IMG/VR virus record: IMGVR_UViG_2721755711_000004
Strand: one strand, 5' to 3'
DNA from: a virus
Lineage: Duplodnaviria; Heunggongvirae; Uroviricota; Caudoviricetes
Length of the DNA: 46,862 nucleotides
Notes under the pieces: model-generated
Told to the model about the DNA's origin: nothing
The model's input: only the letters and a program-made list of their open reading frames with translations
Databases searched by the model: none
Position numbers and translations under genes: made by a program
Shown: positions 7,538 to 23,065 of the stretch, piece by piece
How the letters are laid out: the number at the start of each line of letters is the position of its first letter
Position numbering within the stretch: position 1 is the stretch's first letter

Positions 7538-10500
7538 TCAACGAATACTGATGCCGGAAGCGGCTTTTTTGGTCACAATCACCGTACAGTCGGTGATATT
7601 ACCTGCCCACTGATTGCCTTTATGGAAAACCTTAAACTCCAGAGTGACGCTTCCCCTGCCACTCGGCATATCAATAACCGCACTGTAGCTACCGGGAATG
7701 GCCCCTTTAGTTTCTCTGGATGCGATTAATACACCGTTTTTGCGAACTTCAAAACCATAACCCGTGTATCTTGTACCTCCCGGGTTATTACCACTTCCCG
7801 GATCGCTATACGCTATTCCGTTAAAGATAATGGGCGGAATAATGATTTGACGGTCAAAGTTATGATCATCGCTGATGGTGACTGTAACCGTCCCGTTTGG
7901 TGTTTCCGTGTTACCCCACGTACCAGCCTGTTTCGGAAATGATTTGGATACAGCTTTAACGAAGTCACCTCTGACCTGAGTCGCCTCCAGCATGCCCTTA
8001 ATCGTACAGTTTTCATTTACCGTGACATTGTTGAGCGTCCCGGCGTTCGCATTCACACTGCCACTGATATCCGCATTTTTAGCGGTCAGCTTTCCGTCTG
8101 ATGTCAGGGAAAATACCGGAGGACTGCCACCGCTGGTAATGGTGGGGGCCGTCAGGCGCTTCAGGAACACGTCGTTCATGAATATCTGATTGCCCTGCGC
8201 CACAAACATCGGCGTTTCATTCCCGTTTGCCGGGTCAATAAATGCGATACGGTTAGCGGCAACCAGAAACTGACTCAGTTTGCCTTCCTCCGTGTCCTCC
8301 ATGCTGAGGCCAATACCCGCGACATAATGTTTGCCGTCTTTGGTCTGCTCAATTTTGACGCCCCACATGGCATTCCACTTATCGTTAGCGTCCTGCCACT
8401 CTTTCGAAAACTCCTCCAGTTTGCTGGCGTTATCCTCCGTCAGCTCGACTTTTTCCAGCAGCTCCTTGCCGAGATGGGATTCGGTTATCTTGCCTTTGAA
8501 AAAATCCAGGTAACCTTCCGCATTATCGCTCGCCCGACCGACGGTCTCCACGAATGCCGATTTGCCAACGGTGTTCACACTGCGGATATAAAAGTAATAA
8601 TCATGGCCCGGTTTGATATTGATACTGGCGGCTATCCAGTACAGCGCCGTACCAAGATAGCGGGCTGTGGTTTCAACCTGCCTGATATCGGTAATCCGCT
8701 TTTCCGAGAACCAGAACTCAAACTGTACCGTCGGGTCATAAACGGCAAGATGCGGCGTGGCGGTTATCTGAAAATAGCCCGGCGTCAGCTCAATCCTCGA
8801 CGGTGCTTCCGGTGCGGCAATCCGGAACGATACCGACGCCGGATCGCCCTGCTGTCCCCACGCATTTACCGCCCGGACCGTCAGCATGTAACGCCCCAGC
8901 GCCAGCTGCCTGAAGCGGTATGTGGTTTCCGTCGTCCGGGCCGTGCTGACCAGCCGCTCACTGCCGTCATCCGCTGTTACGGTCAGACGGAGCAGGAAGC
9001 TCACGCCCTTCACCACCTTCGGCGTGTCCCAGCGGGCCAGTACCTGATACTCCCCACTGTCTGCGGTGACTTCGGCGGTCAGGTGCTGCACCGCTGGCGG
9101 CGTGACACCATTCACCGTGCCGCTCTGGTCGCCGTCAAAGTGCGCCCCGTTATCCACGATGGCTTCTTTTTCCGGTACATGCTGCACGGCGGTGATGGCA
9201 TACGTGCCGTCATTGTTCTCACGGATACTCACACAGCGGAACAGGCGCTGGCGCAACGTCGGCAACTTCAGCCCCCACACGCTGTATCCGGCAACGCCGT
9301 CAGGAACACGGCTCACTTTTACCTTCACGCCGTCGGTGACGGACTGAACCTCCACGCTGACCGGATTGCCACTTCCGTCAACCAGGCTTATCAGCGTGGT
9401 ACCGGAGGATGGCAGCGTGATTTCACGGTCGAGCGTCAGCGTCCGGGTCTGGCTGTTTACCGCCAGCACGCGCCCGCCGGTGCTGATACCGGCATAGTCA
9501 TCATCACAGATTTCAATGACATCGCCCGGCACATGGCGAAGCCCTTCGGCACCCACGCTGAAGTCCACCGTCTGCGTTTCCAGCAGCTCCGTTTTAATCA
9601 GCCACAGCCCGGCGCGGTGTGCCTGCCCCCGGCTGGTACAGCCAAAGGCATCCATCTTCGTGACATTACGACCGTAACGGGCAATGGCCTGCGAGTCCTC
9701 CACAAGCTCTGTTGCCGTCTCCCAGCCGTTATCCGGGTCAATCCAGTTCACCTCAACGGCATTATGGCGGTCTTTCAGGGCGCTGAAGCTGTAGCGGAAC
9801 GGCGCGCCATCATCCGGCATCACCACATTACTGCGGTTATAGGTCCACACCTTATCCGACGGTCGGTCCTGCACGAACGTCAGCGTCTGCCCGTTCCATA
9901 CCGGCATACAGCGCATCGCCGAGCAGAAATCACTGAGCACATCCCACGCCTTACGTTGTGTGGTCAGGTAAGCGTTACAGGTGATGCGCGGCTCCGTACC
10001 GCCAAAGCCGTCCGGCACCGACTGGTCGCAATTCTGGCCGATGACATACAGCGCCCATTTATCCACATCTGCCGCACCAAGACGTTTCCCCATGCCGTAG
10101 CGCGGGTGGGTCAGCATATCCCACAGACACCAGGCCATGTTGTTGCTGTATGCCGGTTTTAACGTTCCGTCCCAGATACCGCTGTATTGCCGCGTCTGCG
10201 GGTTATAATTCGACGGCACCTGCAGAATGCGCCCGCGAAGATGATAATTACGGCTCACCTGCTGGCTGCCGAACTGCTCCGAATCCACCTGCACGCCGAC
10301 CAGTGCCGTGTTCGGGTAGCACTGTTTCACATCGATGATTTCGGTGTATGACGACCAGAGCGTTTTGTTCTGCAGCTGGTCTGTGGTGCTGTCCGGCGTC
10401 ATCCTGCGCATCCGTATACTGAACGGGCGCGGCGGCAGGTTACCCACCACCACCGAGGCCAGATACTGCGAGGTGGTTTTGCCCTTAATGGTGATGTCTT

Positions 10501-13013: not shown

Positions 13014-13343
13014 CTATGCCACGACCTGTTCAAAATCTGCCGTTATGGTTACCCACAGCGCCCCCACGCTTGCCGACCATTTACGACAAACCACCCTGAT
13101 CGGTTTCCAGTCATAAGGTGGCGTCCACTGAAATGCACGGACGCCACCGTGCCGTTCCAGAAAGGCTTTTAAAGATGGGTGTTCACATTTACGAACACGT
13201 ATCGTCACGCTGTAAGTCGACAACTGGTTATTCAGTCCCGCCGCACGACGCTGTTCATAACCATCGCCCAGCTTCACTGTCACCACTTTCGGCTCTGATA
13301 CCACATTCATATCCGGGCGCACTTTCCAGTGAAACGTCTCCAT
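13014..13343 (-). CDS. minor tail protein M
   Basis: 109 aa, lambda M-like, immediately downstream of the tape measure gene with a 1-nt overlap. Confidence 0.85.
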   Translation of the reverse strand: METFHWKVRPDMNVVSEPKVVTVKLGDGYEQRRAAGLNNQLSTYSVTIRVRKCEHPSLKAFLERHGGVRAFQWTPPYDWKPIRVVCRKWSASVGALWVTITADFEQVVA

Positions 13344-16300
13344 TACCGATATGCTCCACTTAACCGACCACCATCACGGGCCTGCTGTTGCATAAAGTCC
13401 GCTGCCGCTTTTTTCCCGAGGTCATAAACCGCCTTCAGGGCAGCCGGACCTATCTGCCCGTTCGTGCCATCGTTATTGATCTCGATGTTGTACTGCGGGG
13501 AAAACATCGCCATACCTGAACCCCCAATATCCGCCACAACCCCCAGCTTACCGTCAGCACCACGACGCAATGGCAGAATGGCTTCAGGTCCCGCTTCCCC
13601 CATCACACCCGCGCCTTTTGCAAAAGCAAAAAACGTCGGACGGTTAACCACCGTGCCACTGTAACGACTCAAATCAGCAGACTGATAAATCCCCCCATTG
13701 GCATTCAGGGAAAGGCTGCTGAGATCAAATCCCAGTACACTGCCAATCCCTTTTATCGATTTCATCATGGTTGCCTGCGCCAGGATTTTCGCCATATCTG
13801 ACAGCACCGAAGAGGTGAAGGATTTGAAGTTGAGTTTGCCGGTAGTGACAAAAGTTGCCAGGCCATTTCCCATGTTGCTGAAGGCTGACGAGAACACCTG
13901 TTCTGCTGTTCCTGCCGTATTGTCTGCATCCACGGTAAAATCCTGAAATGCACGCAGGACTCCGTTTTTCCAGTTACCCTGCACAACTTCAAGCTGTTGC
14001 CAGTAACGGCGATTCTCATTCAGTTGTCGGTTCAGGCTCTCCGTCAGCGCCTGCTCGGCCTTTCTGTAGTCATCCGTGTTATATGTCCCTTTCTGCTCAC
14101 TATCCCGCCTCAACTGCTCCAGCTGTTGCTGGTATTTCTGGCGAAGACTCAGTTGTACCTGATATCGCTGCCGCTGCTGATCACCCATACCCACCGTGGC
14201 GATATCCAGGTCATGTTGCTGACGCTGAGCGAGCTCTTCTTCAGCCAGTTGACTGGTCAGCTGAATTGTTTTTTTCTTCAGATCGTTGAGTGCCGTCTGT
14301 TTCTGAAGCTCCTGCTGTTTTACATCCAGCAGCGTCAGTGCCTGAATCAGTTCATCTTTACGGGCCAGCACACTCTTTTCATCTGCCGTCAGTTTTTTCC
14401 CGTCCAGATCGCTGATGCGCTGCTGCAGAGCCAGAAGCTGTTTATGCGCTTCTGTCATCTTTTCAGTGGCAATGCCTGCTGACTGTCTTGCAACAGCAAT
14501 CTGTCCTTCCACCTGTGCCTGTTGCTGACTGTACTGCAGCAATAACCGGGTGGCCTCATCATTACGGGTTTCGCGTGTTTTTTTCTTACCGGATGCCAGG
14601 GCTTTCTCGTAACGTTCATTTTCACGTTGTATCGCTGCATCCCTGACAGCCTGATCGGCGTACTGCATGGAATTAATACGCGCAATTTCACGCTGATGTC
14701 GTGCTGCTTCCGTTTCATTCATCCGGTTCAGTGCAGCATTTTCAGCATTACGTCGTTTCTGTTGCTCCTGATAATTCCGCTCTGCCTGCTCTTTTGCATC
14801 CTGCAAATCCTTCTGGCGTTTTTTCTCCTGAAGATCGTTAAGACGCTGCTGATCGTATTCAACCTGAGAAGATGATGCCGTCCAGGGGAGTCTTTTCGCC
14901 CGCGACACTTTCTCCTGTAAAGCGGCAATCTGTTCATCCAGCGAGTCTTCACGACCAATATTCATGGCCGCATCCCAGAAACGACTCCACAAATCAGACA
15001 GATACTTCAGCGTACTGCCAAGCGCATTGAGGTTATTATCAATATCCGCAGTACGCCGATCGGTTTCCTCTGCCAGTGCAGACATGGCTATCCGTGCAGC
15101 ATCACTGGACCGTCCCTGATCCCCAAGGACACGTATCTGCTCAAGCTGAGTGGCAGTAAGAAAATGCAGCTCATTGTCCAGAGCCTTCGCGGCATTTACA
15201 GGATCATCCTTCAGCCGCTTAAACTGATTTATGGTATCGCTGACCGACTGGCCAACCGATCGCTCCATCTGTGCGGCAGCTCTCGCCACCATACCGATAT
15301 CGTTTCCACGAAATGCACCACTCCCCACCACCTGAGCCAGCACACCGGCTGCAGCATGTTGCGTGATACCATTCCCGGAAATAGCACGACTGAGCGTCCA
15401 CAGCTGCCCGGCAGTGACTCCGGCATAATGCCCCGTCAGCGACAACTGGCGGTTAAATTCTTCCCCCTCCTTCTGACCGTCATACCAGGCTTTACCCAGA
15501 CCATAGACGGACGCGGCAATACCGCCAATAACCCCGCCAAGCATCATGCCTTTCGGTGACATCAGAGTGTCTATCCATCCGGCACGGTTAGCCAGCGTTA
15601 TCCCGGATCCCCTCAGCGCCCCTAAATTGCCGCGGGCCAGTTCACCTATCAGAACGCCTATCTCCTGGCGGGCCGCTGCACTTTTCAGACCCAGCGAATG
15701 CGTGGCTTTTCCTGCCTGCTCCATTTTGCGGATATACACTTCTGCAGCACTGCTTACCCCCAGCTGGGCAGCCTTAGCACGAAGCAACTCAGAAGAAGAA
15801 AGATTCTGGCGGGTTGCCTGCTCTTTAAGCTGACGGATAAACGCCACTTTCTGTCGGGTAGCCTCTTCCTCAGCCTGCGTAAGAACACGGGTTTTCGCCG
15901 TAACCTCAGAAATCAGCGCCAGATAATCCTGCTGACCAATCCCGCCACTGTTTCTGGCCTGTCGGATCTGCTGCTGAATACGCTGTAATTCCTGCAGCCC
16001 CGCACTGGCCTGTTTCACACTGTCAATCTGACGATAAAACGCAGCAGCCGCTTTATCCTGAGCCTCCGCCAGAGCCATGGCCTGCGCCTGTTCCTCGCGC
16101 ATTTTCTGGCTCAGTGCCTCCATGCGCTGGCGGGTTTTCTCCACCTCGCGGGCCATGCGTTCATGAGCCTGTGCGTTCTTCTCCACCGTCTGCGCATGGA
16201 CGGATGCGGCTGTTGCAGCCGAAGAAGCTGCCTGCGTTGTCTGCCGGGCGGCCTGAGTCTGACGCTCCATAAAACGCTGCATACGGGCAGAAGACCGTTC

Positions 16301-16438
16301 TGCATCGCTGGCTGCACCATTCAGAAGGTTTTTGATACGGGGAATTTCATTTTTAAACTCTGCCGCATCAATCCCCAAATCAATGACCAGGTTGGCTATC
16401 TGGTCCATAACGCACACCTCCGGAAATACCTTCCCCAA
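13343..16438 (-). CDS. tail tape measure protein H
   Basis: 1031 aa, coiled-coil rich (many Q/E/R/A heptads) with a Gly-rich hydrophobic C-terminal region; position between G-T and M. Confidence 0.85.
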   Translation of the reverse strand: MGKVFPEVCVMDQIANLVIDLGIDAAEFKNEIPRIKNLLNGAASDAERSSARMQRFMERQTQAARQTTQAASSAATAASVHAQTVEKNAQAHERMAREVEKTRQRMEALSQKMREEQAQAMALAEAQDKAAAAFYRQIDSVKQASAGLQELQRIQQQIRQARNSGGIGQQDYLALISEVTAKTRVLTQAEEEATRQKVAFIRQLKEQATRQNLSSSELLRAKAAQLGVSSAAEVYIRKMEQAGKATHSLGLKSAAARQEIGVLIGELARGNLGALRGSGITLANRAGWIDTLMSPKGMMLGGVIGGIAASVYGLGKAWYDGQKEGEEFNRQLSLTGHYAGVTAGQLWTLSRAISGNGITQHAAAGVLAQVVGSGAFRGNDIGMVARAAAQMERSVGQSVSDTINQFKRLKDDPVNAAKALDNELHFLTATQLEQIRVLGDQGRSSDAARIAMSALAEETDRRTADIDNNLNALGSTLKYLSDLWSRFWDAAMNIGREDSLDEQIAALQEKVSRAKRLPWTASSSQVEYDQQRLNDLQEKKRQKDLQDAKEQAERNYQEQQKRRNAENAALNRMNETEAARHQREIARINSMQYADQAVRDAAIQRENERYEKALASGKKKTRETRNDEATRLLLQYSQQQAQVEGQIAVARQSAGIATEKMTEAHKQLLALQQRISDLDGKKLTADEKSVLARKDELIQALTLLDVKQQELQKQTALNDLKKKTIQLTSQLAEEELAQRQQHDLDIATVGMGDQQRQRYQVQLSLRQKYQQQLEQLRRDSEQKGTYNTDDYRKAEQALTESLNRQLNENRRYWQQLEVVQGNWKNGVLRAFQDFTVDADNTAGTAEQVFSSAFSNMGNGLATFVTTGKLNFKSFTSSVLSDMAKILAQATMMKSIKGIGSVLGFDLSSLSLNANGGIYQSADLSRYSGTVVNRPTFFAFAKGAGVMGEAGPEAILPLRRGADGKLGVVADIGGSGMAMFSPQYNIEINNDGTNGQIGPAALKAVYDLGKKAAADFMQQQARDGGRLSGAYR

Positions 16439-16730
16439 GATGCATCAGTTCTTCGTCCGTTCGCTCCGGTATCCCGTTCTCTTCCGGTAAAAGGCTGAAA
16501 TCAGCCACCGCAGCATCACTGCTGCCGGACACCATTCTCACGATCAATGCCTTCAGCGAGGCAAACTGCGCATCCATCCACACATCACTGAAGCTCTGCA
16601 TCCGGAAATAATCGCCCCACTCACCAAGCTCAGTGGCCGACATTTCCGACAGCATCCGCCGCCAGTCTGCCCGCCGGAACTCCCGGGCAAGCCGCATGAC
16701 AAACTGCATTTCCCGCGTCAGGACTTTTCC
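16380..16730 (-). CDS. T segment of the tail assembly chaperone G-T fusion (reached by -1 frameshift from G)
   Basis: This frame is open across the 3' end of G in the -1 register; the minus-strand sequence GCCGGAAAAGTCC spans the G stop region. Arrangement matches lambda G/G-T. Confidence 0.55.
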   Translation of the reverse strand, partial: GKVLTREMQFVMRLAREFRRADWRRMLSEMSATELGEWGDYFRMQSFSDVWMDAQFASLKALIVRMVSGSSDAAVADFSLLPEENGIPERTDEELMHLGEGISGGVRYGPDSQPGH

Positions 16731-17104
16731 GGCGTCAGCGCCTCATGCTCATCATCCACGGCATTATCAATGGCCCCCATACCGCTCAGCGACAGAACCA
16801 TCTCCGCCCCCGCACCCAGGGCATCATACGACCATGTTGTAATAACGGATGCGCAAAGCGTCTCTACATCCTTAGACTGATCCGCATTCCACAGTGAGCG
16901 GGAAACCAGCCAGGCATTGATATCCATCCCCATCCGCAGAAAAGCAATCTGTCGTTCAGCCTCCGGCAGTTCTCCCTCCCCGGCATCAAACTTTGCCGTT
17001 CGCTGCTGAACAAACGTCAGATATTCAATTCTCTGCAGCCCGGACAGCTCACTGAGCACCACGGACTGTTTTTCATAATTAAACGTGTCCTGTTTCAGAA
17101 ACAT
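16718..17104 (-). CDS. tail assembly chaperone G
   Basis: ORF with likely start MFLKQDTF..., ending ...TPEKS; lies between V and H. Confidence 0.75.
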   Translation of the reverse strand: MFLKQDTFNYEKQSVVLSELSGLQRIEYLTFVQQRTAKFDAGEGELPEAERQIAFLRMGMDINAWLVSRSLWNADQSKDVETLCASVITTWSYDALGAGAEMVLSLSGMGAIDNAVDDEHEALTPEKS

Positions 17105-17164
17105 CATGTTCTCCACCTGCAAAAAAGCCCCGCATAACCGGGGCAAATGATGAGTATCGTCCTG

Positions 17165-17908
17165 TTAACCTGCTGCGCTGACAGTCACCGCAGTCACAGC
17201 CACAAAATTCCCGTCAGCGGTCATGCCCACAATGCTGACACTGCCCTGCTTCACGCCTTTTACCGTGGCCACAAGTCCGTTCAGGGTAACCGTGGCAGTC
17301 TGTGGATCTGACGAATGCACACTGATCGCTTTGTCACTGGCTCCGTCAGGTTTTACTGTAAAGGTCAGCGTGGTGGTTGCTCCCACTTTTACACTGGCAG
17401 ACGCCGGTGATACTGTCAGCCCGGTAACGCTCACGGTTTCAGTGCCTTCCTCTGCCAGATACGGACGCCCCACACCGCTGATTTTCACAGTGCGGGTCAT
17501 CACGTCTTTTGAGGCAATGGTTTTACCCAGTGAGCTCAGCCAGCCACGGAAAACATCAACAGTGCCGTTGGGATATTTGATACGAAACGCGCAGACTTCA
17601 CCGGAGTCGAACAACTGAACCAGTTTTTTCTGCCCGCTGTCACCCGGACGCCAGGCCAGCGTCGCCGAAGTATCACCAACGGATTTCTGCCCCTGGGTTG
17701 TCGTTTTCCAGTCTGCATCTTCATCATCGAGATAAGTGTCATCTTCTGCATCAGCGGTCATTTCGCCAGGTTGCAGATCCTTCACCATCGCAAGACGCAG
17801 CCAGTCAGTGTCCGACAAAGGGTTCGCAAACGCATCGCCGTTGCCGGTATACATCCAGAACGTCGTCCCCGCACCTTTCGTCTTTGCCAGTGGATTTGGT
17901 GTGGTCAT
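17165..17908 (-). CDS. major tail protein V with C-terminal Ig-like domain
   Basis: Likely start MTTPNPLAKTKGAGTTFW; lambda V-like N-domain and a Thr/Val-rich Big_2-like C-terminal domain. Confidence 0.85.
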   Translation of the reverse strand: MTTPNPLAKTKGAGTTFWMYTGNGDAFANPLSDTDWLRLAMVKDLQPGEMTADAEDDTYLDDEDADWKTTTQGQKSVGDTSATLAWRPGDSGQKKLVQLFDSGEVCAFRIKYPNGTVDVFRGWLSSLGKTIASKDVMTRTVKISGVGRPYLAEEGTETVSVTGLTVSPASASVKVGATTTLTFTVKPDGASDKAISVHSSDPQTATVTLNGLVATVKGVKQGSVSIVGMTADGNFVAVTAVTVSAAG

Positions 17909-19584: not shown

Positions 19585-21543
19585 TTACGCCGTACATTTC
19601 ACCAGACCGCGGTGATCAACTGGCGCGACACCGGCGTCAATACGCACTTTCGTTGTCACGCCATCCACACTGAAGCCCTCCATCTGATCAATATATGGCG
19701 TATCCACACCGTTGAGATAAGCCACTTCAATCGTATCGGAGCCTTTGGACGCAGCCAGGTAGAAGGTGGTCTGGCTGTTATCATCAAGACGAGGCTCTGC
19801 AATAACGGTCGCAAAATCTTTCACCGGGTTAATAATACCGGCGTTAATGTCAGCCCCCTTGACACTTGAGGAGCGAATGACCTGGTTAGCAACAGACTCC
19901 ATCGCCGTCGGTACCAGTACGAACGCAGGACGAATATTCAGATGACGCTCCCCCTCTTTCTGAACGCGCATCAACTGGCGGGCTTTATCCAGCGATGCCA
20001 CGTCCATTGCAGCGCTCTCCAGTACGTTTGCATGTTTCGCTTTATCGAACAGACTTACATTATCTGTGGAGATTTTCGGGTTAGACGTCAGAATGGCATA
20101 AACCAGATCGGCAATGGTGGATTTCGCCGCACGGCCCAGCTTCATCGGGACATCGGTCAGCATATTCAGATCATCATTGATAATGGCCTGACGGGTGATA
20201 CTGAACAGCTCGCCATAGGTCGCCAGTGCAATAGTGGCCTGTTTATCTCCGGTGGTGACGTATTTATATTCCGCCCCTTCACGCACCTGACGCAGAGCAC
20301 TGAAGCCCCCCATACCCACACGATGGGCAATTTTAAAATCAGACAACTGACCTTTCCGCGTCCACTGTTCATAGGTTTCAGGAGCATCTTCCCAGCCCTG
20401 CAGAATGGCTTTGTTCGCAACATCCAGCAGAATATTACCGAAGTCAGACGTACTGTGTGTGAACGCCGCACCGACCATCTGCATCGGGTTATAACTGGAA
20501 ACCCCAATACCCCGTTCAGTCAGTGACATACGGGCATATTCACGCAGGGTCATCCCGTTGTAGACATTATCACGTTCGGTTTTTTCAAATCCGGCACGCG
20601 CCATCAGCGCCTGGCGGATCCCGTCCCCCACAAAATTACCGTTACCGGCATAAATATGAGCCGGGGTATTTTTATTGGATGGCGTGGACTCGCGCCCCAT
20701 CTCGTTCAACAGCTTTTCGCGGGCCTGCTCCAGCGAACATTCAGGATCGGCAAGACACTGAGCCTGCAGAGTCTGATAACGCCCGCCAAACATGGCAAAC
20801 AGATCATTAATACCGTTTACACGCGCTTTTTGCTCTGCCAGTACCTGCGCACGGATACTGTTTTCATCCACCACGGGTGCTGCTGCCTGCACTGGCGTCC
20901 GGGAGGCTGCAGGTTCATCATCCTGTACGCGTGGAGCACTGTTGCGTGGCGGAGTAATCATGTTTCGAATGGATTCCGGCATCTTTTTAAATTCCTCTGT
21001 ACGTTTTGACTGAATACATGCCATTGCCTTAACGGCTGGCGTTACCTGATCAGCAAATCCATGTGCCAGACATTCGGCACCGGACATCCAGGTCTCATCC
21101 GCCAGCATGGCAGCAATTTCATCGGTGGTTTTCCCGGTTTTCTGTGCATAAGCGGGTAACAGAACCGCCTCAACTTTATCGAGCAGGTCGGCATAGGTGC
21201 GCATGTCCTCCGCATCACCGCCCGTAAAGCCAAATGGTTTATGAATCATCATGAAAGTGTTTTCCGGCATAATGACCGGGTTTCCCACCATCGCAATGAC
21301 CGACGCCATTGACGCCGCCACACCGTCGACATAAACCGTAATGGACGCACCATGTGTTTTCAGCGCATTAAAAATGGCGATGCCTTCAAAGACATCGCCA
21401 CCCGGTGAATTAATATGGAGATTAATGTGGGTGATATCGCCCAGTGCATTCAGATCACTGATAAACTGCTTCGCTGTAACACCCCAGAAACCAATCTCGT
21501 CATAAATATAAATATCCGCGTCACTCTGGTGACCAGCCTGCAT
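19585..21543 (-). CDS. prohead protease (ClpP/S49-like) fused to major capsid protein
   Basis: N-terminal ClpP-like region (IYIYDEIGFWG...INSPGGDVFEGIAIFNAL...MIHKP) followed by a capsid-like C-terminal region; start chosen at MQAGHQ just after the portal stop. The ORF track extends to 21804 with alternative upstream starts. Confidence 0.8.
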   Translation of the reverse strand: MQAGHQSDADIYIYDEIGFWGVTAKQFISDLNALGDITHINLHINSPGGDVFEGIAIFNALKTHGASITVYVDGVAASMASVIAMVGNPVIMPENTFMMIHKPFGFTGGDAEDMRTYADLLDKVEAVLLPAYAQKTGKTTDEIAAMLADETWMSGAECLAHGFADQVTPAVKAMACIQSKRTEEFKKMPESIRNMITPPRNSAPRVQDDEPAASRTPVQAAAPVVDENSIRAQVLAEQKARVNGINDLFAMFGGRYQTLQAQCLADPECSLEQAREKLLNEMGRESTPSNKNTPAHIYAGNGNFVGDGIRQALMARAGFEKTERDNVYNGMTLREYARMSLTERGIGVSSYNPMQMVGAAFTHSTSDFGNILLDVANKAILQGWEDAPETYEQWTRKGQLSDFKIAHRVGMGGFSALRQVREGAEYKYVTTGDKQATIALATYGELFSITRQAIINDDLNMLTDVPMKLGRAAKSTIADLVYAILTSNPKISTDNVSLFDKAKHANVLESAAMDVASLDKARQLMRVQKEGERHLNIRPAFVLVPTAMESVANQVIRSSSVKGADINAGIINPVKDFATVIAEPRLDDNSQTTFYLAASKGSDTIEVAYLNGVDTPYIDQMEGFSVDGVTTKVRIDAGVAPVDHRGLVKCTA

Positions 21544-21556
21544 CCTGAACCAGGAA

Positions 21557-23065
21557 TTATTCTTCGGACTGGTCGTCGGTGTGCTGCGGCTCCTGTCGTT
21601 TCGTTGCGGCACTGCTGCCTCCTTTATCACTGGCCGGATCGGTATCAAATACCAGATCCAGCTTGCGGTTTTCATCAATTTCGGCCTTGCGCCGACGTTT
21701 GACATCATCCGGATTACGACCACCAGCACGTACCCAGTCTGATTCTGTCGCCGCTCCACCACGAATCTGGATTTTCCAGGCCTCAGCCTCCTTAACAGGG
21801 TCAATCCACGGCATCACTGGTCCGGAATACACCGCGGTATACAGTGAAGAACGGTCAAGATCGCGGGGTAGCCTGATAACACCGGATGCCACAGCCTGTT
21901 TCAGCCAGGCACGATACATCGGGCGGGTGACGGCACCAATAAACCAGTCCTGCAGGATCAGGTAGCCATCAGTAGACTCAACCAGTTCCTGACGCTGGGC
22001 GCTGTAAGTGCCGTTATAGTTGCGTGCCGTACTGGAAAAACTCAGACGACTGCCCGCCGCCACGGCACGCAACTGACCATTACGAAAAGTTTCAAGGTTA
22101 GGATTGGGACGATCCGACTTCACCATTCCGATTTCTTCGCCGGGTTTCAGATCGTCGTAAATAATGCCTGGCTGAATGGTAAGCTCGCGTTCATTCTCCT
22201 TGCTGTCATTACCATCCGTTTCATAGCTCTGTCCGTCGCCTTTCCGGATGTACATCCCCAGAGCAGCGGCGATCCTTGCTGCAGTCAGCTCAGAATCTTC
22301 ATACTCTTTCAGGGCGCTGAGGCGGATCAGCACACCGGACAATAAAGACGTCCCGCGCATCTGGTGCAGACGGCGAACAAATTTAAGATGCAGCATTCGC
22401 TCTGCATCCACTTCTTTGGTTTCCATCTGCCGTCCGGATACAGGACGACTTTTATACACCAGATATTTTTCGGGACGCCCCCAGTCATCAACAAACACGC
22501 CCTGATTCAGCCTGTTGCTCTCATCACTGGTCATGGGAATAAAGTCCGGCTCGAGCGCCTCCAGCCAGAAATGAACACCGGCAGAAGGCGTCAGGCAGTT
22601 TATGCGCCCGGAAACCATCTGGGCAAACACCTCACCATCGCGCAGCCAGGTACGCAGCATCAGACGTTCCAGCATCGGACGGGTAAACTGCCCGGTGACT
22701 TCCGGACTGACAGACCATTCACTCCATCGGGTACGTATCTCCGCTGCCAGGTCACGGGCAATGGCACCATTGCGTAATACCGGATGTGGCTCGACAATAA
22801 TCCCGTTTTTCCCCACCACCCGTTCTTCCAGCTTGTCAAATACACCAATGACCAGATCGTGGTTGTTATCAAGGTAACGGGCCTGCTCACGTAACGACAC
22901 GGCCCCGTACTGGCTTAACTGGTCGGCAGTTCGGTTCTCCCGTCGGGCTTTGTGTGTCCGCGTCGTTTTTACGGCCTCATAAGCTTGGATCACCGCTCGG
23001 GAACGCAGCCTTGCCGCTTTCCATCCTGGTGAAAAAACGCCAATCACATCATCAAGAATTGCCAT
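21557..23065 (-). CDS. portal protein
   Basis: About 502 aa from MAILDDVIG...; lambda B-like position between the W-like gene and the protease-capsid gene. Confidence 0.85.
   Translation of the reverse strand: MAILDDVIGVFSPGWKAARLRSRAVIQAYEAVKTTRTHKARRENRTADQLSQYGAVSLREQARYLDNNHDLVIGVFDKLEERVVGKNGIIVEPHPVLRNGAIARDLAAEIRTRWSEWSVSPEVTGQFTRPMLERLMLRTWLRDGEVFAQMVSGRINCLTPSAGVHFWLEALEPDFIPMTSDESNRLNQGVFVDDWGRPEKYLVYKSRPVSGRQMETKEVDAERMLHLKFVRRLHQMRGTSLLSGVLIRLSALKEYEDSELTAARIAAALGMYIRKGDGQSYETDGNDSKENERELTIQPGIIYDDLKPGEEIGMVKSDRPNPNLETFRNGQLRAVAAGSRLSFSSTARNYNGTYSAQRQELVESTDGYLILQDWFIGAVTRPMYRAWLKQAVASGVIRLPRDLDRSSLYTAVYSGPVMPWIDPVKEAEAWKIQIRGGAATESDWVRAGGRNPDDVKRRRKAEIDENRKLDLVFDTDPASDKGGSSAATKRQEPQHTDDQSEE

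Follow-up and report, generated by a model that had tools for sequence, protein, structure and literature searches.

By what route does the ribosome pass from the tail assembly chaperone gene G of this phage into the reading frame that follows it, and can the place of passage be fixed to a single pair of codons? The locus lies in a stretch of 46,862 nucleotides from a member of the Caudoviricetes (IMG/VR record IMGVR_UViG_2721755711_000004), which in its whole length is called here the window. An earlier note, written from the letters of the DNA alone, had proposed a probable programmed -1 ribosomal frameshift joining G to the T segment. This proposal is supported by the geometry of the frames, by the families of the encoded proteins and by a conserved slip site, the fused product itself being a prediction from the DNA. 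In our estimate, with a probability of about 0.88, the locus would be the G/G-T programmed -1 frameshift of a lambda-like (Qin/mEp460/cdtI-type) Escherichia coli siphovirus prophage.

Reading frames and gene neighbourhood

The features on which the argument depends are the following, all of them on the minus strand.

13343-16408, minus strand: open reading frame of 1021 codons, homologue of the tape-measure protein H, starting at ATG 16408
16380-16724, minus strand: T segment as translated after the predicted slip, 114 codons, VLTREMQFVMRLAREF...GPDSQPGH, with its stop at 16382-16380
16718-16742, minus strand: two-frame overlap of 25 nt in which both G and the -1 T frame are open, bounded by the -1 stop TGA at 16745-16743 and the G stop at 16720-16718
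16718-17104, minus strand: gene G, tail assembly chaperone, 128 aa, MFLKQD...ALTPEKS, with its stop TGA at 16720-16718
16724-16730, minus strand: candidate slip site G_GAA_AAG, read CCG GAA AAG in the 0 frame and GGA AAA in the -1 frame
16741-16744, minus strand: Shine-Dalgarno (SD)-like GAGG, 10 nt 5' of the heptamer, from a reading of the sequence
17121-17144, minus strand: terminator-like hairpin between V and G, GCCCCG-GTTATG-CGGGGC followed by T6, likewise read from the sequence
17165-17908, minus strand: homologue of the major tail (tube) protein V, directly upstream of G, identified by a Pfam match

The frames of G and T were read base by base on the reverse complement of positions 16350-17170. 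The G frame begins ATG ATG TTT CTG AAA (17107/17104) and thus carries an extra in-frame ATG at 17107. A comparison of G homologues showed that all begin with MFLK, and the spacing from GGAG favours ATG 17104 over 17107 as the start. At the other end the frame closes with GAG GCG CTG ACG CCG GAA AAG TCC TGA; the codons that had been quoted for this end (ACG CCG GAA AAG TCC TGA) are correct, and they belong to the minus strand, which had been left unstated.

The -1 frame, after its own TGA, reads GGC GCT GAC GCC GGA AAA GTC CTG ACG CGG GAA ATG CAG and remains open over 120 codons, beginning at 16742 and closed by the stop at 16382-16380. The earlier figure of about 115 open codons agrees with the counts, which are 117 from GCC and 114 after the slip, and the placing of this frame across the start of the tape measure is equally right: its end overlaps by 29 nt the beginning of H at ATG 16408, a start that is preceded by GGAGGTG and that matches both the mEp460 and the PGAP annotation. 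The 25-nt overlap with G, to which any passage between the two frames is confined, amounts to eight 0-frame codons, GCG CTG ACG CCG GAA AAG TCC TGA. A -1 stop inside this overlap is what the earlier note had named as speaking against a frameshift, and the -1 frame is open throughout 16742-16718. Joined at the slip site, the two segments would make a predicted G-T fusion of 241 aa, ...HEALTPEK|VLTREMQFVMRLAREF.... The reconstruction rule was validated on a control, since the lambda site G_GGA_AAG joined in the same way reproduces exactly the UniProt entry P03735, 'Tail assembly protein GT'.

Both halves of the pair are recognized by their families. G matches PF06894 (E 4e-40, 137 bits, cutoff 27) and the NCBIfam equivalog TIGR01674 phage_lambda_G (184.7 bits, cutoff 74.45), and the T segment matches PF06223, minor tail protein T (E 5e-15, 56 bits, cutoff 25.9), together with the NCBIfam equivalog TIGR01715 phage_lam_T (136.8 bits, cutoff 77.35). 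Moreover, the flanking genes are those of a tail module: the V homologue matches PF16461 Phage_TTP_12 (E 5e-67) and Big_2 and is labelled major tail protein in the records of mEp460, Ayreon and Tritos, while the H homologue matches PF06791, PF09718 and PF24622. The G/T pair lies between V (17165-17908) and H (13343-16408), and the order of the genes in RefSeq agrees. Judged by these matches, the block is the V-G-T-H block of a lambda-like siphovirus, and the assignment to the conserved G/G-T arrangement of long-tailed phages fits in gene families, in position from V to H and in the use of the -1 frame. The records of mEp460 and N15 enter the counterpart of the V-G hairpin as a rho-independent terminator, that of HK225 as a stem-loop; in the window it probably lowers the expression of G, T and H relative to V.

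The slip site across related phages

Inspection of the codons shows that GGAAAAG, at 16730-16724, is the sole site of the overlap competent for re-pairing. The change from AAG to AAA, made by one tRNA-Lys, is the sole cognate -1 re-pairing in the overlap, and the change from GAA to GGA keeps positions 1 and 3 with a G.U in the middle. The other codons of the overlap (GCG, CTG, ACG, CCG and TCC) were considered as slip positions and rejected, none of them re-pairing in the -1 frame, and gene G as a whole contains no other in-frame G_GAA_AAG or X_XXY_YYZ motif. The earlier note had located the slip around GGAAAAG and had rightly distinguished it from the lambda GGGAAAG, leaving its exact position uncertain; that uncertainty is now resolved, as the overlap holds a single candidate codon pair. 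GGAAAAG departs from the canonical X_XXY_YYZ pattern, its positions 1-3 being G, G and A, and it would act like a heptamer though it is non-canonical. The motif alone proves nothing: its enrichment in the window is not significant (12 copies vs 7.9 +/- 2.6 expected). What is far above chance is its placement, within the eight-codon overlap that joins two family-recognised domains, together with its conservation.

This conservation was followed in a survey of G homologues, gathered by tblastn on phage records, from IMG/VR and from GTDB with one genome per species. The IMG/VR loci are all at least 92% identical, and the diversity of the survey comes from the phage-record tblastn and the GTDB scan. 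In 132 of the 141 loci collected, the analysable ones, the G stop and the -1 overlap were both located; they represent 64 distinct G-T proteins, which form 19 clusters at 90% identity and 15 at 70%. Alignment with the G-T junctions of related phages had been suggested as a check of the proposed frameshift, and it places a single in-frame A_AAG per overlap, in homologous register, in 132/132 loci; among representatives of the 15 lineages the junction alignment is ungapped and A-AAG is invariant. By 70% cluster, the heptamers are GGAAAAG in 10, GGGAAAG in 3 (including lambda), AAAAAAG in 1 (VT1-Sakai) and AGAAAAG in 1 (Morganella). GGAAAAG thus stands in register in 54/64 distinct G-T proteins and in 10/15 clusters, being found in N15, HK225, phi80, mEp213, Fels-1 and many prophages, and it is kept in all 96 mEp460-type loci, while G, T and H are intact in 132/132. 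The view of GGAAAAG as atypical therefore holds with respect to the lambda GGGAAAG and has to be abandoned for the phage family, of which it is the majority heptamer.

Furthermore, the choice of synonymous codons at the junction is restricted. The Lys codon of the site is always AAG, vs a share of 26% for AAG among the Lys codons of this prophage's structural genes, and the Glu codon before AAG is always GAA and never GAG, vs 47% for GAG among the Glu codons of this prophage. The heptamer's base 1 closes a codon for Ala, Pro, Thr or Leu, and in 10/11 GAA-AAG clusters it is a G, whereas the adjacent Thr codon ends, among the GAA-AAG lineages, in any of the four bases. A base 1 that is nearly fixed beside a synonymous base that varies favours selection on the full heptamer, that is, tandem slippage; since the clusters share phylogeny, these codon-bias arguments are indicative and do not amount to formal probabilities. 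At the protein level, G keeps a conserved stretch of five residues just ahead of the slip, [VL][TS][AP][EG]K, beside a highly variable acidic tail.

The homology of T is informative as well. Across lineages it begins directly after the heptamer, with the pattern [VA][LF]..EL.F.L.LAREF.R.DWR.ML; in BLASTP comparisons, the T segment of the window aligns with N15 T from the first residue beyond the slip (43% identity) and with lambda T from the fifth (38% identity). Public records present T as a separate gene from ATG 16709, and the T-domain homology reaches upstream of this annotated start. The position of ATG 16709 is taken in other lineages by Leu, Arg, Val or Ala (CTG, CGT, GTG, GCC), and the annotated T starts disagree, with three choices among mEp460, Ayreon and Fels-1.

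Could T then be a protein of its own, started at ATG 16709, for instance by coupling of termination and reinitiation, with no functional frameshift at all? The ATG lies just 8 nt beyond the G stop, and both PGAP and the phage records list T as an independent CDS. A reinitiated T is nevertheless disfavoured because the ATG has no usable Shine-Dalgarno sequence (only GGGAA abuts it), because it is unconserved, annotators having picked three different starts, because the homology with lambda and N15 T runs upstream of it as far as the heptamer, and because reinitiation gives no reason for a conserved slip site within so small an overlap. Lambda itself is said, in the 1993 work of Levin et al., to make only gpG and gpGT. 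A free T domain would also lack the means of binding the tape measure, which belongs to the G part (PMC5009743), and altogether we consider this account improbable.

A decaying prophage, in which the -1 frame stays open by descent only and has no function now, would be in keeping with the chromosomal, Qin-type nature of the window, such elements being often defective. Against such a relic, the same module occurs at 99-100% identity in the plaque-forming mEp460, Tritos, Ayreon, HannyBb and PhiR55_1, and the survey found the three genes intact in 132/132 loci and the heptamer preserved in 96/96 mEp460-type loci, which makes this reading very improbable. Slippage of the RNA polymerase, adding or dropping an A in the A4 run, is very unlikely in our judgement. 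For transcriptional slippage to be productive, a run of some seven or more is required, and the short run of the site has only four A's, with three in the lambda-type GGGAAAG; moreover, the conserved features (the frame of A_AAG, the G at heptamer position 1) are specific to the codon register, even if similar two-product outcomes arise by transcriptional slippage in other systems (PMC5009743). The programmed frameshift on G_GAA_AAG is the reading retained in what follows.

Mode of slippage and the search for stimulators

In lambda, gpG and gpGT are made at a ratio of ~30:1 that is essential, and long-tailed phages conserve the arrangement; the tape measure is bound through the G segment, the tube protein through the T segment, and the virion contains neither product (PMC5009743). 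The lambda G-T shift occurs at ~3-4% and depends on the thiolation of mnm5s2U34 in tRNA-Lys, a modified nucleoside that tRNA-Glu bears as well (PMC3296357). From this precedent and from the conserved junction, we infer for the window the slip itself, its frequency, its two-tRNA or one-tRNA mode and the roles of the chaperones. The majority of ribosomes would end at the G stop and yield the 128-aa chaperone gpG, while a small fraction would slip by -1 on G_GAA_AAG (16730-16724, minus strand). In this event the A-site tRNA-Lys(mnm5s2UUU) would move from AAG to the cognate AAA, and the P-site tRNA-Glu(mnm5s2UUC) from GAA to GGA, with positions 1 and 3 kept and a G.U in the middle. Translation would resume in the -1 frame at GTC CTG ACG... 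and give the 241-aa G-T fusion, ...ALTPEK|VLTREMQFVMRLAREF.... If the lambda precedent applies, the G part would serve to bind the tape-measure protein and the T part to bring in the tail tube protein, and the frequency of the slip would set a fixed G:GT ratio. A low shift frequency is expected at this site. Both slipping tRNAs (Glu and Lys) would be of the mnm5s2U34 class on G_GAA_AAG, and the effect of thiolation could thus extend to the window.

The same product would be obtained if only one tRNA slipped, tRNA-Lys moving from AAG to AAA on A_AAG with no productive re-pairing of tRNA-Glu; the move would take place in the A site, or else in the P site during slow decoding of the following codon or of a nearby stop. 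We regard this mode as possible and rather unlikely. A_AAG is indeed the only element invariant in 64/64 distinct sequences; in the Morganella locus L105 the site is A_GAA_AAG, where a move from GAA to AGA cannot re-pair and AAG is followed directly by the stop TAA. In addition, the move from GAA to GGA involves, according to Peng et al., a non-cognate second-position mismatch, and A_AAG is the best tetramer of E. coli (PMC4066793). However, a one-tRNA slip needs neither a G at base 1 nor GAA in the P site, and so the near-fixed G beside free synonymous positions and the constant GAA, despite the abundance of GAG in this prophage, count against it. Moreover, tetramers without a stimulator remain near background (PMC4066793), and the folds described below revealed no stimulator. 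Tandem slippage of both tRNAs on the full heptamer is therefore favoured.

In a reconstituted E. coli system G_GAA_AAG was described as 'unfavourable / less slippery', giving mainly the 0-frame product, and the P-site re-pairing from GAA to GGA as near-cognate, with a second-position G.U (PMC6924986). The A_AAG tetramer in vivo yields ~0.15%, which is near background, and reaches 5.6% with a strong downstream pseudoknot (PMC4066793). That a poor shifter in vitro, predominant as the natural G-T slip site of enterobacterial lambda-family phages, calls for a special explanation is a proposition that we find quite doubtful. Should it do so, the mid-codon G.U re-pairing of the P-site tRNA-Glu may be well tolerated in vivo, or a stimulator as yet unrecognised may be provided by the nascent peptide [VL][TS][AP]EK, by the NCG codon in the E site or by GAGG-N10, or else the phages with GGAAAAG may build their tails at a GT:G ratio much lower than that of lambda.

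The search for a downstream RNA structure, in folds of 60, 80, 100 and 151 nt that surround the site or follow it, gave z values from +0.28 to -0.92, and the RNAalifold consensus of the 15 lineages, at -1.35 kcal/mol and with no covariation, is essentially unstructured. No stem-loop or pseudoknot of the dnaX type, 5-9 nt past the site, occurs in the folds of the window; the closest local hairpin begins ~31 nt past the heptamer and is therefore too far to touch a ribosome positioned at the site. In the minimum free energy fold of the 151-nt segment, CGCCGGAA, which takes in the heptamer's first half, is paired with UUCCGGCG, ~45 nt further downstream. The pairing is absent in N15, and it was set aside because it is not conserved and because the ribosome would melt it. 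In N15, phi80 and lambda a very stable hairpin in the T-coding sequence lies ~33 nt past the site (z = -4.6, -2.5 and -3.6, respectively). It was rejected as a stimulator, this distance being too great, and the window is without it.

Upstream of the heptamer, every mEp460-group locus and the Phytobacter locus L121 have GAGG at exactly 10 nt (GAGGCG here, GAGGTG in a sister allele), and Fels-1 and the Citrobacter locus L101 have AGGA at 12 nt. Among the survey loci, the N15, phi80 and lambda lineages are devoid of an SD-like element upstream of the heptamer, and since they lack GAGG, GAGG-N10 is not a conserved feature. It may stimulate the slip in the mEp460-type lineage, and it may equally be explained as a by-product of the Glu-Ala codons. 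The spacing of the SD-like element in dnaX is 10 nt. The dnaX site, A_AAA_AAG, resembles that of the window in the move of the A-site tRNA-Lys from AAG to AAA and in having an SD-like element upstream (PMC6924986), but differs from it in being a canonical heptamer with a required downstream stem-loop and a shift of ~50%, whereas no downstream structure was found in the window. The A_AAG sites of IS1/IS3-family transposases (Sharma et al., 2014) share the A_AAG core and a P-site codon without cognate re-pairing; these tetramer sites require strong downstream pseudoknots or hairpins, in contrast with the window, where none was found.

Known systems, annotation and significance

Among the closest known systems is lambda G/G-T (Levin, Hendrix & Casjens, 1993; Xu, Hendrix & Duda, 2004, 2013, 2014), with which the window has in common the gene order V-G-T-H, a T in the -1 frame, the A-site move from AAG to AAA, a homologous ...K|V... 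junction and the lack of a conserved downstream structure. The proteins are homologues at equivalog level, yet only 32% (G) and 38% (T) identical. The heptamer is G_GGA_AAG (Gly-Lys) in lambda and G_GAA_AAG (Glu-Lys) in the window, and for this reason the P-site re-pairing would be near-cognate in the window, whereas in lambda it is a third-position wobble. The overlap extends over 64 nt in lambda vs 25 nt here, with five codons vs one between the site and the G stop, and the T of the window is 30 residues shorter.

Nearer in its slip site is N15, whose record NC_001901 carries at 10027-10033 a 'slippery sequence for -1 translational frameshift' that reads GGAAAAG in the register of the window. 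The corresponding genes 14/15 have the same heptamer and register, gene 15 being described as the downstream half of the frameshift product. Similarly, T of HK225 is annotated as 'downstream half of translational frameshift product', and its heptamer is the GGAAAAG of the window. The G and T proteins of N15, HK225, phi80, mEp213 and Fels-1 are only ~30-57% identical to those of the window. The GAGG of the window lineage at 10 nt is without counterpart in N15 and phi80.

The locus itself is widespread. Over the 901 bp that surround the site, identity is 97-99.9% to mEp460, cdtI, Tritos, Ayreon, HannyBb, PhiR55_1 and others, and 100% to a Qin-type prophage beside ydfJ in E. coli H7; the G-T module is present in 1846/5426 complete E. 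coli genomes, about one third. Since earlier records show the arrangement, the family and, in N15, this very heptamer, and since many public genomes contain the DNA, the finding is already known in its essentials: it is real but ordinary, a known mechanism in a known phage group, and the understanding of tail assembly is unchanged by it.

Its value is rather of a practical kind. The examined records of the phage group of the window contain no joined G-T CDS and list T as a separate CDS, and an exact look-up of the predicted 241-aa fusion in a collection of 15 billion proteins found it absent, whereas the lambda control was present. This is an annotation gap, in which G-T is entered as two genes with inconsistent T starts and the predicted fusion is missing from the databases, and a rule searching for an in-frame A_AAG in the overlap of G with the -1 frame, usually as G_GAA_AAG, would mend these annotations. 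For recoding research, the junction is a test case, abundant in nature, for a heptamer with only near-cognate P-site re-pairing; that the dominant natural slip site of the family performs poorly in vitro is of modest value.

The literature open to search gave no shift rate for G_GAA_AAG at a phage G-T junction and no protein-level data on the G-T fusion of the window lineage; looked through for GGAAAAG as a phage slip site, it gave only the use of this sequence as a control by the Rodnina laboratory. The GenBank feature of N15 is the sole documentary evidence found of an earlier recognition of GGAAAAG.

Residues and hairpins around the G-T junction

The final residues of tail chaperone G ahead of the predicted slip site follow the pattern [VL][TS][AP][EG]K (16733-16747 of the window, minus strand; columns ~140-150 of alignment A1), which is conserved at the amino acid level among lineages sharing only ~30% overall identity. 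The ~20 residues of G that precede it are hypervariable, with many gaps in the same alignment. This conserved segment could play a role in frameshifting, either through the nascent peptide or at the E site, or could function as a linker in G and GT.

A very stable hairpin lies within the T coding region of three related phages, in each case given below in the coordinates of the surveyed locus:

1341-1376 of the N15 locus (L010), folding z-score -4.6
1339-1373 of the lambda locus (L004), folding z-score -3.6
1348-1383 of the phi80 locus (L006), folding z-score -2.5

It spans the LAREFGRPDWRAM codons and lies on the 3' side of the slip site, ~33 nt away, a distance too great for a classical frameshift stimulator, and this candidate role was therefore rejected. 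The hairpin is absent from the window and from Fels-1.

A further hairpin is found upstream of G, in the interval that separates it from the tail tube gene V:

17121-17144, minus strand, strong terminator-like hairpin (GCCCCG-GTTATG-CGGGGC, then T6)

The mEp460, N15 and HK225 records also carry the V-G hairpin, labelled there as a rho-independent terminator or as a stem-loop. By attenuation, it probably lowers the expression of G, T and the tape-measure gene H relative to that of V.

Prophage identity and gene content

The window corresponds to a full-length Qin-type lambdoid prophage adjoining ydfJ/ydfI, whose genes include hokD, cspB/cspF/cspI, essD, rrrQ, rzpQ, pinQ, tfaQ and ydfK, and it has the following counterpart:

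399641-440541 of NZ_CP010171 (locus L142), E. coli H7

Its head and tail module is intact; that of the K-12 Qin prophage has been lost. A single long ORF of the window carries a fusion annotation from PGAP:

19585-21612, minus strand, ClpP-like prohead protease / major capsid protein fusion

This annotation of one ORF indicates that protease and capsid constitute one polypeptide in the prophage. In the mechanical ORF list, the ORF reaches 739 aa, using an upstream TTG start.

Database loci of doubtful origin

Loci L124-L136, all short contigs of GTDB genomes labelled Kitasatospora, Pseudomonas, Shewanella, Oceanobacillus, Neobacillus, Leeuwenhoekiella, Pseudoxanthomonas, Psychrobacter and others, carry G-T regions that match the lambda sequence exactly. 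Where the contig name gives a coverage, it is mostly ~1x, and up to ~10x in one case. These loci are almost certainly lambda DNA contaminating the assemblies.

Three GTDB MAGs with taxonomically unrelated labels, namely Bacillota, Proteobacteria CTSoil and Geobacteraceae (L095, L100 and L113), harbor E. coli-type G-T modules with 35-94% identity to the window G protein, the 35% value being that of the Geobacteraceae-labelled MAG. They are probably enterobacterial prophage contigs misplaced by contamination during binning.
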